A stretch of 64,000 nt of DNA, taken from positions 128,001 to 192,000 of the forward strand of contig CBDAQI010000001.1 of assembly GCA_965198945.1 (NCBI GenBank), written 5' to 3'. Below the pieces are notes generated by a model. It was not told the origin of the DNA. It ran no database searches and saw only the letters and a list, made by a program, of their open reading frames with translations. Of the stretch, positions 29,743 to 42,321 are shown piece after piece. This DNA is from Thermodesulfobacteriota bacterium (lineage in GTDB: Bacteria; Desulfobacterota_D; UBA1144; Nemesobacterales; Mycalebacteriaceae). The translations under genes were made by a program, and so were the position numbers. Position 1 is the stretch's first letter. The number at the start of each line of letters is the position of its first letter.

Positions 29743-32700
29743 ATGAAAAACGACTTCGTCCATCTTCATCTACATTCCGAATACTCTCTTCTGGACGGGG
29801 CGATAAAGTTCCGGGATCTTGTTGAGAGAGTGAATGATCTGAACATGGGCGCGGTTGCAATTACAGACCACGGCAACCTGTTCGGGGCTTACGAATTCCA
29901 CAATGAGGCGAAAAAAAAAGGGCGTTAAGCCCATAATCGGTTGTGAAATCTACGTTACCCCCACACTTAAACTTGACAGACCTTCGGACGGAAAAAACTT
30001 CCACCTGACCGTTTTGTGCATGAATGAAGCGGGTTACGCAAACCTTTCCAACCTGGTTACGCGGGGTTATTTTGAGGGGCTTTACAGGCGTCCCAGAGTT
30101 GACCACGAAATGCTTGACGAGCATAACGAGGGTTTGATAGTTCTGAGCGGCTGTATGAGCAGTGAGCTTTCCCAGTCAATTTTCAAGACTGTGAAAGCAA
30201 CACCTGAGTCGGTGATTTCAACCTACAGGGAAATCTTCGGCGACAGATACTATCTTGAGGTCCAGGCCACCGGGATAAAAGAACAGACCCGCATAAACAA
30301 AGAACTCAAAAAACTTGGCGACCGTTTTGACATTCCGCTCGTTGCCACAAACGACTGCCATTTTCTGCGACGCTCCGATTACGGTCATCACGATGTTCTT
30401 CTCTGCATACAGACCGGCAAAACTCTTGAAGACCAGGGCAGAATGAGATTTCAGGGAGACGGTTTTTACCTGAAAACAAGGAAAGAGATGGAGGAAACCC
30501 TCAGAGGTTTTGAAGACGCGATAGACAGAACCGTTGAGATAGCGGACAGATGTAACTTTGAGTTCAAAAACGAGGGATACCGCTTTCCGAAATTTGAAGC
30601 CTCAGAGGGTATGGAGTCCGATCATTTTCTTCATAAACTAGCCGCCGAAAAACTCAGACAAAGGCTTTCTTCGCGCCGTATTCCGGACGACGCGATGAGA
30701 CAATACGAAGAAAGGCTCAATTATGAGATTGAAGAAATCTGCAAGATGGGTTTTGCGGACTATTTTCTTGTGGTCGCAGATTTTGTCGGATTCGCCAAAA
30801 GGGGCGGCATTCCGGTCGGCCCCGGTCGGGGGAGCGCGACCGGAAGTCTCGCCTCCTACGCTCTGGGAATAACAGACGTTGACCCCATTGTTCACAAACT
30901 GATTTTTGAACGTTTTCTCAATTCCGGAAGGATCTCAATGCCGGATATAGACATTGATTTCTGCACCGAAGGGCGCGAAAAGGTAATAGAGTATGTAACC
31001 GCCAAATACGGCAGTGAGAAGGTTGTGCAGATAGGCACTTTCGGCAAGATGTCTTCAAAGGCCGTCGTGCGGGATGTCGGAAGGGTGATGGGGCTTCCTT
31101 ACGGCGAAGTGGACAGAGTTTCAAAGCTGATTCCGTCTTTCCGGGGAAAGGTTTTCAGCATAGAAGACGCCGTTACAAAAACCCCCGAATTGAAAAGGCT
31201 TGTTGAGAGTTCGGACAAAATCACCGAGTTGATTGAAACGGCAAAGCCTCTTGAAGACATGGTGCGCCATTCATCCACCCATGCGGCCGGGGTCGTGATA
31301 GCGAGTGACAGGATTACGGACCGTATTCCTCTTTATAAAGGCAGCAATGGGGAGATAGTAACTCAATTTGACATGGGCGCCGTTGAGAGTCTGGGATATG
31401 TTAAATTTGATTTTCTCGGACTGAAAACTCTCACCGTCATAAATAAGGCCATAGGCCTTGTAAGCGAAAAATCAGAAGCCGCCGCTCCGAATCTGGAAAT
31501 AGACCATATGCCTCTTGATGATAAGGAGGTCTACAAGCTTTTTGCTTCCAGAAACACTCACGGGCTTTTTCAAATAGAGTCTTCTTCGGGAATGGTTTCC
31601 ATGCTGCGCAAATTGAAGCCCGAGCGTTTTGAAGACATAGTCGCGGCCCTTGCGCTTTACAGACCCGGCCCCCTTGACAGCGGCATGGTTGATGATTTTA
31701 TCAAAAGGAAAAGCGGCAGATCGCGCGTTTCGTATCCGCACCCGCTTCTCAAAGACATTCTTTCCGAGACTTACGGTTTGTTTGTTTATCAGGAGCAGAT
31801 AATGAGAACGGCTACCGTCTTTGCCAACTACAGCCTTTCGGATGCGGACCTTATGAGAAGGGCGATGGGCAAGAAAAAACCCGCGGAAATGAAGGCGCAG
31901 AGGGAAAAATTTTTGTCAGGCGCCACGGAAAAGGGCATAAAAAAAGCCAAAGCCGCAGAACTTTTTGATGTCATGGAGAAATTTGCGGGCTACTCTTTCA
32001 ACAAAAGTCACAGCACCGCATATGCGCTCGTCACATACCAGACCGCCTACCTTAAGGCGCACCATCCGGCGGAGTTTATGTCTGCCCTTATGACCATTGA
32101 TGCGGGCGATAATGACAAAGCGATAGCGCATATGACGGAATGCAGAAAAATAGGAATAAGGGTTCTTCCCCCTGATGTGAACGAGAGCATGTCTGAGTTC
32201 ACCCCGGTTGATTCGGAAACCGTCAGGTTCGGTTTGTCCGCTCTGAAAGGGTTGGGCGCAGAAATGGTGGGAGCGATAATAGACGCGCGGCGGGACGGTC
32301 CTTTTGAGGATTTGTTTGATTTCTGTGCGCGGGTTCAGTCTAAGCGACTCACAAAAAAGGCTTTTGAGATGCTGATAAAGAGCGGTTCTCTGGACTCTCT
32401 TGAAAACAACAGGGCGAAACTTTTTGAATCCATTGACAAACTCTGTTCCTATCATTCGCTTAATCAGTCTTCCGGGAATGGGGGACAGGGCTCTCTTTTT
32501 TCCTTGTCTGAAACTGTTATTACAAGTCCGGTTCTTACGGAAACAGAGACATGGAGCGAAGAAAAATCCGCCCAATACGAGCTTGAATCGCTCGGGCTTT
32601 TTGTTTCAAGCCACCCGATGATAAGGTATTCGGAGCAGTTGGAGATATTCGCCTCCCATGCGGACACGTCAAAGTTTCATGACCTTCCGGATAAAAAAGA

Positions 32701-41178: not shown

Positions 41179-41334
41179 AGGGGGTTGAATACGCTGAGTA
41201 ATACCATAAAACCATCCAAGAGTTACGGGATGTTAAAGGACAACTGCCAACAGCATGGCAAACATTAAAAAGACTGAATAATTTTTCCTAGTCAGCACCT
41301 CACCCCTTTATCTGGTGCCATAAGCCGGACCTTG

Positions 41335-41440
41335 CTACCAATTCAACTAGAGTTGAAGAAGCCTGACTATTTCCCTGTCATAAGACAGGGTGTTGTATTT
41401 GCCACAAACCCGACAAGCGGGACTCTGGTTGAGTTGGTAG
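41335..41440 (+). repeat. 106-bp element with 20-bp terminal inverted arms (structured RNA or MITE)
   Basis: CTACCAATTCAACTAGAGTT (41335-41354) pairs with GACTCTGGTTGAGTTGGTAG (41421-41440): 17 Watson-Crick + 3 G-U; internal hairpin CCCTGTC-ATAA-GACAGGG at 41373-41390. Confidence 0.75.
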
Positions 41441-41516
41441 AGGGGAAATGTCACAGAAGAGCTGTAAAATAATCAAGAGGATGTCTAACACGATATATAG
41501 TTACCAAGTTTTTGCC

Positions 41517-41545
41517 TTGACAAACCAATAAGACAATCCTAATAT
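41517..41545 (+). promoter_or_regulatory. Sigma70-type promoter
   Basis: TTGACA (41517-41522), 17-nt spacer, TAATAT (41540-41545). Confidence 0.7.
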
Positions 41546-41551
41546 TTGTCT

Positions 41552-41628
41552 GTAAAGTATTATAAAGCCCTCACGCATGACTCCATTATTGATTCTTTGG
41601 AAAATCTGCCCGAGGGCATTTCTTTATT
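41552..41628 (+). ncRNA. Candidate structured leader / small RNA upstream of the NYN gene
   Basis: GCCCTC (41567-41572)/GAGGGC (41612-41617) outer stem, GCA/TGC, GA/TC and TCCA/TGGA inner stems, then U-rich ATTTCTTTATT directly before ATG; no SD. Confidence 0.5.
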
Positions 41629-42305
41629 ATGCCAACAGCAGTTCTTGTTGATGCCGCATTTTTTCTGAATAGGTTGCCTAAAGTCTATTATAAAGATTTT
41701 TCGTCTCCGTATTCCTCAAATGACCCAAAGGCTGTTAGTAAAAAATTGCATGAGATGGCATTGTCTCATTTAAATCAAAGAGATTCAGAGAAAAAGCGAA
41801 GCCTTTACAGAATTATCGTGTATGACTGTCCACCACTTGAGAAAAGAGCGCATAAGCCTATAACCAAAGAAAACTTGACTTTTCAAGCACACCGGCCGCG
41901 CAATTCAGAAAAAAATTTCACGAAAAACTAAAGGGAATGAGGAAGGTAGCTCTCAGGCTTGGAAGTCTTTCAGATAAGAACAGGTGGATAATCAATTCCA
42001 ACAGAATTGGAAAAGTTTTGGATTGTAAGGAAAAACTTACCGACGATGATTTTATCTATGATGTGTCTCAAAAAGGCGTTGATATGAAGATAGGACTTGA
42101 CATCGCAAGTCTGTCTCTCAAAAAGCTTGTTGACCAAATCATTCTTGTTTCCGGAGATAGTGACTTTGTTCCGGCTGCAAAACTTGCCCGCCGAGAAGGT
42201 ATTGATTTTGTGCTTGACCCTATGTGGAGCCCTATCAATAGAGATTTGTATGAACATATAGATTGCTTGCATTCAACATGTCCTAAACCACCTATTTCAC
42301 AATGA
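41629..42305 (+). CDS. NYN (LabA/DUF88, PIN-like) domain ribonuclease; 1-nt frameshift at ~41870
   Basis: AVLVDAAF, YRIIVYDCPP, KVALRLG, QKGVDMKIGLDIAS, SGDSDFVPAAKLARREG; adding one A in GAAAAC joins ORFs 41629-41931 and 41937-42305; low GC. Confidence 0.88.
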
Positions 42306-42321
42306 AAACAAATTATTATTT

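Follow-up and report, generated by a model that had tools for sequence, protein, structure and literature searches.

The window, by which we mean the whole stretch of 64,000 nucleotides analysed here from a Thermodesulfobacteriota bacterium, holds a dead and divergent specimen of a widespread, apparently undescribed cassette in which a small leader RNA is joined to the gene of an NYN nuclease. Judged from the sequences of homologous loci, the cassette has a constant layout, a conserved RNA structure, a one-to-one link between RNA and gene, an intact nuclease active site and a mobile way of life. We propose, with a confidence that stops a little short of even, that the RNA attenuates the gene and binds the nuclease in a manner similar to AbiF and to type III toxin-antitoxin (TA) systems.

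At the window locus the transcript would start near position 41552, downstream of a forward-strand sigma-70-type promoter with the sequence TTGACA-17-TAATAT (-35 box at 41517-41522, -10 box at 41540-41545). The site, 41517-41545, matches the consensus at 10 of 12 positions and is the joint best call of a promoter scan between 39000 and 45000; taken alone the match is weak, since eight promoter-like sites were found in this interval and 5.2 are expected. The predicted leader RNA of about 70-75 nt (41552..41628, forward strand) carries an AU at 41562-41563, five nt 5' of stem P1 as in the family described below, followed by a 51-nt rod of three stems (41567-41617) in which P1 (41567-41572) is paired with 41612-41617 and which has a 2x2 loop and a predicted apical loop of 12 nt (41586-41597). 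The rod is followed by a U-rich tail (41618-41628) with 6 T in its first 8 nt. The fold of 41560-41628 has a predicted energy of -19 kcal/mol (z -3.5), and one in 200 shuffled sequences was equally stable; a strict terminator scan did not call the hairpin. The ATG of the NYN gene lies 11 nt 3' of the stem and is preceded by no SD-like word. An earlier note on this DNA had described a near-consensus promoter, a leader of about 75 nt with a long hairpin and a U-rich tail, and an ATG without an SD sequence, and all three descriptions agree with what was found here.

By its fold and by the covariance model, the leader is a divergent variant of the family motif. Its hairpin is the best match to the family model within the window, but it scores only 16-17 bits, which derive from P1, the tail and the 5' AU; P1 has 6 bp and the 2x2 loop replaces the internal-loop core of the family. 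The lambdoid copy of E. coli shares the shape of the window rod, and the copies on a Pseudomonas plasmid and on the Campylobacter plasmid pTet form other rods of three or four stems and 52-56 nt. Taken together, these rods suggest that length and position persist where the sequence does not. The window copy has no close relative and forms a terminal branch of 0.52 beside a sister clade that bears the canonical RNA; the window rod may be either a re-evolved partner or a product of decay. A search with Rfam 15 gave nothing relevant in the window (E 10) or, at the gathering score, on 14 homologous loci.

The gene itself is found in two pieces on the forward strand, both of which match PHROG 5783. 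The N-terminal part (41629..41874; E 4e-16) includes the first catalytic aspartate and the YDCPP motif, and its frame ends with a stop at 41929-41931; the C-terminal part (41877..42305; E 2e-56) includes the QKGVD, GDSD and HID motifs and matches Pfam NYN with 35.7 bits (cut-off 24.2), no other Pfam family being matched at E 0.1. All the scored acidic residues are present, as the earlier note had stated in assigning the protein to the NYN/PIN ribonucleases. A cysteine occupies a position at which 134 of 136 non-redundant proteins have glycine, and at 76 conserved columns the window protein departs four times, this cysteine included, compared with a median of three. Apart from the frameshift the protein thus looks, by its residues, recently functional.

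The one-base frameshift between the two parts (41872..41876) was earlier suspected to be an error or an inactivation. The first of these explanations was rejected: two studies provide four short-read runs with contigs over this site, and all four carry the break in identical form (depths 16.5, 2, 2.4 and 2, the deepest run being possibly the source sample). The frameshift is present in the organism in four data sets, and the window copy is therefore a pseudogene. In the gshA region, between 40935 and 41133, the window contains five extra bases that are missing from the deepest run, the NYN gene of which is unchanged. The assembly therefore does contain indel errors, and other split genes in the window (a ComEC-like gene at ~34790, a DsbA-like gene at ~39870) may be artefacts. 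It is very improbable that the frameshift is a programmed switch rather than decay. It is true that the shift is real and that a run of seven A forms an A-AAA-AAT heptamer in the overlap of the two frames (41909-41916), but a shift at this heptamer would skip a phenylalanine and an arginine, both of which show almost no or no variation among 98 homologues. Moreover, breaks of the gene are seen in 11 out of 236 loci with homologues (some of these breaks may be assembly errors, and two further stops at the natural C-terminus are left out of the count) and the positions are scattered, which argues against a shared programmed site.

The GC content of the NYN module is 38.3% as compared to 49% for the 64-kb window, and the ORF list holds no further frame of at least 60 aa from gshA to the NYN gene. 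This agrees with the earlier remarks on a low-GC insert and on the absence of a nearby protein antitoxin gene. Some of the insert on the 5' side of the promoter belongs to a separate RNA element, which is encoded on the other strand. The insert occupies a variable cargo slot (41190..42321) between gshA and the gene of a CLC channel. A close NYN homologue was found in one of 61 related genomes, namely the window's own, and in none of the other 60; the cassette is absent from all five congeners examined, four of which have the gap filled with other cargo. According to labels read from the sequences rather than from database matches, G001 carries a restriction-modification pair and two small genes, G002 and G003 carry remnants of the same restriction-modification cargo (G003 also has a 599-aa protein of unknown type), G004 carries methylase-like genes, and G005 is rearranged. 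The gap appears as a cargo hotspot in which restriction-modification, methylase-like and unknown genes differ from congener to congener (loci L088-L097 and L181). A search of 120 genomes of the window's phylum with the covariance model R2, under strict filters and with no positive control, gave no match.

The opposite-strand element, which is multicopy and limited to the genus, deserves a separate description. It resembles sRNA-Xcc1, lies at 41324..41445 on the reverse strand, back to back with the NYN promoter, and is within the insert and outside the NYN module. Against RF02221 it scores 28-35 bits, the gathering score being 53, and an added 5' arm pairs with the element's own 3' end, giving two mutually exclusive folds. 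There are four copies in G000, three in G001, three in G002 and a partial one in G003; besides the one in the window, the sites include C10:52188, C10:63524 and C6:22129 of G000, L296-L301 and, in partial form, L099. An exact-pattern search outside the genus found none in 120 genomes or in viral contigs. The element sits between the promoter and the SD sequence of exported or lipoprotein-like genes, and because of this position it may be a switch. Behind the copy in the window there is a hydrophobic ORF of 21 codons (41233-41298, reverse strand) that resembles the signal-peptide-like start of the ORF behind the C6 copy, and is probably a remnant of a lost exported-protein gene.

The protein family to which the nuclease belongs is large. 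Of 8000 candidates scored in the homologue search, 7993 proved to be homologues, with a highest identity of 68%, and a profile search gave 524 clusters (50% identity) for which E is below 1e-30. The structure predicted for an intact homologue (P0011, pLDDT 93) is closest to the NYN domain of MARF1 (5yaa; Z 15.3, rmsd 2.7 over 143 residues) and to VPA0982 (2qip; Z 14.9, rmsd 3.1 over 152 residues), the next chain having Z 10.3. Eight residues of the active-site region, six aspartates and a His-x-Asp pair, are nearly invariant among 136 proteins, and each scored aspartate is kept in 135-136 of the 136, the window protein included. We therefore predict a metal-dependent NYN/PIN ribonuclease. With the LabA/DUF88 type NYN proteins (PF01936; e.g. 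VPA0982 and the MARF1 domain) the cassette protein shares the fold and the acidic active site; the window protein has the PF01936 match and the acidic residues, the fold is that predicted for the intact homologue P0011, and the window frame is broken. On the other hand, the subfamily differs from LabA/DUF88 proteins in having a dedicated leader RNA and about 70 extra residues that comprise the YDCPP hairpin, a RKVALRLG strand and a long beta-hairpin. PADLOC gave no match beyond the level of the GDSD motif, there is no solved structure related by sequence, and a homodimer prediction scored 0.30, below the mark of 0.42, which counts neither for nor against a dimer. The annotated members are Cpp15-like gp9 of phage phiE202 and PHROG 5783.

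The outcome that the earlier note had named as refuting its idea, a lack of conserved structure upstream of the homologues, did not occur: the genes are preceded by a covarying, single-copy leader in many phyla. In the motif an AU is separated by three nt from a P1 of 8 bp; there follow an internal loop, P2, an apical loop with AU-NNN at its end, and finally a U-tract. The internal loop has CAGUAM opposite CGANC in the main class and is two nt shorter in Bacteroidota. The hosts are Proteobacteria, Bacteroidota, Firmicutes, Acidobacteria, Planctomycetes, Verrucomicrobia, Spirochaetes and Thermus. In a MAFFT alignment of 40 hand-picked clear cases, two-sided changes occur in all eight P1 pairs and the covariation score is 0.488, as compared to 0.307 after shuffling and at most 0.279 after sliding, and in 36 main-class sequences (the AGUA-class seed) two-sided changes occur in 15 of 16 pairs. 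Model-fitted alignments, in which the fitting leans towards structure, score 0.505 and 0.506, the latter including some minus-strand and spurious rows; kinship inflates all of these covariation scores.

The covariance model R2, trained on viral and genome loci and one plasmid locus, matched 67 of 80 held-out metagenome loci, and in seven of the 13 loci missed the sequence stops short of the upstream DNA; five of six more distant plasmid and phage loci were matched as well. Among loci with 130 nt of upstream DNA, 161 distinct regions were searched and a rod of about 54 nt is present in 149 of them (training rows included), and the motif is visible in five further regions outside the 161 searched. 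Among the 12 misses, five are variant rods when inspected by eye and seven are without the motif. Out of 45 whole genomes, 39 contain exactly one full-length match; these are taken to be the NYN leaders, on the basis of coordinates and of the 30 that were cut out, and two extra matches are short, terminator-like pieces of 44-45 nt. In the 39 genomes the motif precedes no other gene and was never found in trans.

The details of the leader are well preserved. The positions of the internal loop are conserved at 0.77-0.94, and in 157 of 160 loci the 8 nt that follow P1 contain at least five T, a count predicted from sequence; the rod is 49-60 nt long in 145 of the same 160. The distance from hairpin to start codon has a median of 23 nt, with an SD-like word in 50 of 147 loci, and in a crude scan 55 of 114 leader rows had a similar promoter within the preceding 90 nt. 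Two leaders (L222 and L254) keep the core and have no U-tract. No tandem repeats were found in the leader. The AU five nt 5' of P1 occurs in 80 of 111 non-redundant leaders, and it is also present in 15 of 24 leaders whose promoter call lies at least 22 nt upstream, so the AU does more than mark a start site. A co-varying recognition or cleavage word at the two AU sites was considered and rejected: the two sites agree in sequence in 50 of 79 cases (31 expected) before controls, and once stratified by GC the agreement is 66 of 78 with 61 expected (p 0.048), while independent pairs gave one concordant case and five ties. The signal is thus mostly explained by GC and descent, and the protein columns that track the word have no interpretable pattern.

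The RNA is not obligatory. Seven upstream regions from two lineages (L153 and L232; L163, L166, L175, L177 and L244) are without the motif, the four scored proteins among them (L153, L163, L166 and L175) keep every catalytic residue, and in the five motif-less genomes searched there is no copy of the motif elsewhere. L153 lies between purK and purC, and L163 lies behind icd. The second group of five is a clade of Lysobacterales; the two leaders of this clade that were folded are simple hairpins flanked by AUC words, and this form is possibly domesticated.

By its distribution in the sequence records the cassette is a stand-alone mobile unit that lives in prophage lysogeny slots, on plasmids and in gaps of the chromosome in many phyla. 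The phage records with a homologue number 65, and the plasmid records 164. One of them is located directly downstream of cI in lambdoid phage and prophages, which is the position of the rexAB cargo of phage lambda; the slot is alike, and the cassette differs from rexAB in having its own promoter and leader and unrelated proteins. A streptococcal phage copy lies between repressor and integrase, other copies adjoin type II TA or restriction genes, and a Thermus copy has a helicase gene on one side and a methylase gene on the other. Among 150 of the 151 flanking ORFs taken from 80 genome loci no protein partner recurs; about 12 are TA, restriction, integrase, transposase or defence-like genes, and the chromosomal neighbours that could be identified are mostly housekeeping genes. 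There are also NYN genes inside conserved operons, between sucA and sucB (L116), purK and purC (L153, where the RNA is lost) and hsdS and hsdR (L172). The lambdoid copy was seen in 275 out of 5426 E. coli genomes; it is nearly full length in 74 of these and truncated in 201, with promoter and leader unchanged (e.g. L321, Sakai Sp1, ECs0273). The truncation probably goes back to one event, because most of the truncated copies among the matches listed are from O157:H7. At the predicted promoter of the truncated, divergent Sakai copy a published dRNA-seq table (PMC7547250 supplements) has no start site, which is a weak negative, and the supplements of PMC4104026 have no entry at the predicted coordinates of the same EHEC Sakai copy.

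No NYN gene is annotated in the stretch of pTet of C. jejuni 81-176 that was examined, and the pTet leader shares only its promoter with the sRNA CJpv3 as given in PMC3656092. CJpv3 (C. jejuni pVir 31043-31119; L302:1544-1620, minus strand) is described there as an abundant, Northern-confirmed sRNA. It converges on an annotated PemK/MazF toxin gene, the stretch has no annotated protein antitoxin, and CJpv3 is a candidate RNA antitoxin in its own right.

It is instructive to compare the cassette with known RNA-controlled nucleases. AbiF/AbiD-F systems are alike in that a single promoter drives a short RNA ending at an intrinsic terminator, which in the cassette is a prediction, and a solo RNase gene, located in prophages and without a protein antitoxin. 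The differences are that the AbiF nuclease is a HEPN protein (Abi_2), as opposed to the NYN/PIN fold with its aspartate active site, and that the abiF motif RF03085 is absent from the window (E 10) and from 14 homologous loci (gathering score). According to PMC12373285, RCd22-AbiFCd combines termination in cis with binding in trans, PbAbiF is a further system of this type, and the HEPN (AbiF) case is the proposed root of Cas13. The type III TA systems (ToxIN, CptIN, TenpIN and AbiQ), as outlined in PMC5086642, share the order of promoter, RNA, terminator and endoribonuclease on mobile elements, which in the cassette is predicted from sequence. Their antitoxins are described there as tandem repeats processed to pseudoknotted monomers; the cassette has no tandem repeat array and no sign of a pseudoknot, there is one motif copy per locus and genome, and the RNA is a single rod the basal stem of which is itself the terminator stem. 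Nor does the nuclease belong to the ToxN family, its best fold matches being NYN domains. By these features the cassette is a member of neither group. The earlier suggestion of an NYN system analogous to type III TA and AbiF is partly supported: the layout and a covarying, gene-dedicated RNA are there, while antitoxin action, toxicity and abortive infection would be putative.

The reading that we favour can be described as follows. The cassette is self-contained: a promoter is followed by a small structured RNA with a U-tract at its end, and then by the gene of a predicted metal-dependent ribonuclease of the NYN/PIN type. Most transcripts would stop at the U-tract, giving an RNA of about 70 nt in excess over the read-through mRNA; the RNA would bind the nuclease by its internal loop, the two fixed AU sites and the rod of about 54 nt, and would hold it inactive, as is the case for the RNAs of AbiF and type III systems. 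Once transcription stops, for example when a phage infects lytically or the element is lost, the RNA would decay and the nuclease could cut cellular or phage RNA. The window would then represent a recently broken copy with a remodelled hairpin. Termination, binding, toxicity and defence are what we infer in this scheme. Three observations point to it: the U-tract in 157 of 160 loci predicts free RNA in excess, as in the AbiF arrangement; the conserved unpaired positions are not needed for termination and therefore suggest a candidate protein-binding site; and, as no gene other than that of the NYN protein has the motif in front of it in unrelated hosts, the most likely binder is the linked nuclease. 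The prophage positions, the neighbouring type II TA or restriction genes and the restriction-modification genes found in the same slot of congeners also favour it. The two lineages that lost the RNA and kept the active site argue against an obligatory antitoxin, and the predominance of housekeeping neighbours, the lack of tandem repeats, the two leaders with no U-tract and the poor PADLOC result also weigh against this reading. It is rather unlikely, in our judgement, that the cassette is a third, independent class of RNA antitoxin, built on the PIN/NYN fold and directed against phages, in which the RNA is a decoy. In such a case the AGUA/GAN internal loop of the main subclass, which we take to resemble the sarcin-ricin or loop E motif, could mimic a structured target of the enzyme (e.g. 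rRNA), with the AU sites filling the active sites, and the rods of the window, E. coli and Campylobacter type would be re-evolved antitoxins of equal length.

A close rival, to which we give roughly one chance in three, is feedback in cis only: by binding the hairpin of its own mRNA, or by cutting it at the AU sites, the nuclease would limit its own level, being a mild accessory RNase, and any free RNA would play no antitoxin role. RNase III, RNase E and PNPase limit their own levels by the leaders of rnc, rne and pnp, and like these the cassette has a structured 5' leader on the mRNA of a ribonuclease. The hairpin is always in cis, close to a start codon that seldom has an SD-like word, the whole-genome search never saw the RNA in trans, the RNA is dispensable once the gene joins an operon, the U-tracts are often interrupted or absent, and housekeeping neighbours predominate, all of which is in line with feedback. 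However, the rnc, rne and pnp genes are core genes without a leader terminator, and the leaders of housekeeping RNases are vertically inherited, whereas the cassette is patchy, being absent from five congeners and present on phages and plasmids, and has its U-tract directly after the stem. The free RNA that this U-tract predicts and the 11 broken genes, some of which may be assembly errors, also speak against a mere feedback device.

Further down the scale of probability is a sensor attenuator, which we consider improbable. Here a phage protein or another signal would open the terminator or a block of translation, without any binding of the RNA to the nuclease. Lactococcal AbiD1 is a precedent for switching-on by a phage, the conserved unpaired loop nucleotides could be a site for a ligand or protein, and some copies are positioned in prophage exclusion slots. 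Yet the motif is common to Bacteroidota, Firmicutes and Proteobacteria, which have different phages, its restriction to a single gene in the 39 genomes fits a site for the linked protein better, and an unsystematic look revealed no alternative antiterminator fold. It is hardly credible that the hairpin merely terminates or insulates, travelling with the gene and doing nothing else. It would explain why the window hairpin matches the family model only by P1 and the tail, but it accounts neither for a hairpin located between the gene's own promoter and its start codon nor for internal-loop and AU positions that are conserved far beyond the needs of pairing.

The literature searched contains no description of an RNA and NYN module; defence-screen supplements, subscription papers and bioRxiv preprints may list the family. 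Among RNA-motif surveys, the main texts of PMC5737381 and PMC11109978 have no NYN, LabA or DUF88, and supplement 2 of PMC8040213 has five NYN rows, one for YacP and four for neighbours of the LabA_like_C type. Toxin-binding RNA antitoxins have been described for nucleases of the ToxN type and for HEPN (AbiF) nucleases, whereas the classical partners of PIN-fold toxins are protein antitoxins. If our reading is true, a PIN/NYN nuclease tied to its own RNA in many phyla would mean that control of nucleases by RNA arose independently once more. The finding would also provide a function for a large unannotated family of 524 clusters together with a new RNA family, and if feedback in cis is the correct explanation, the leader would still be a new and widespread autoregulatory RNA. 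As the cassette amounts to one gene and 70 nt, the antitoxin and feedback readings should be separable by a few standard experiments.
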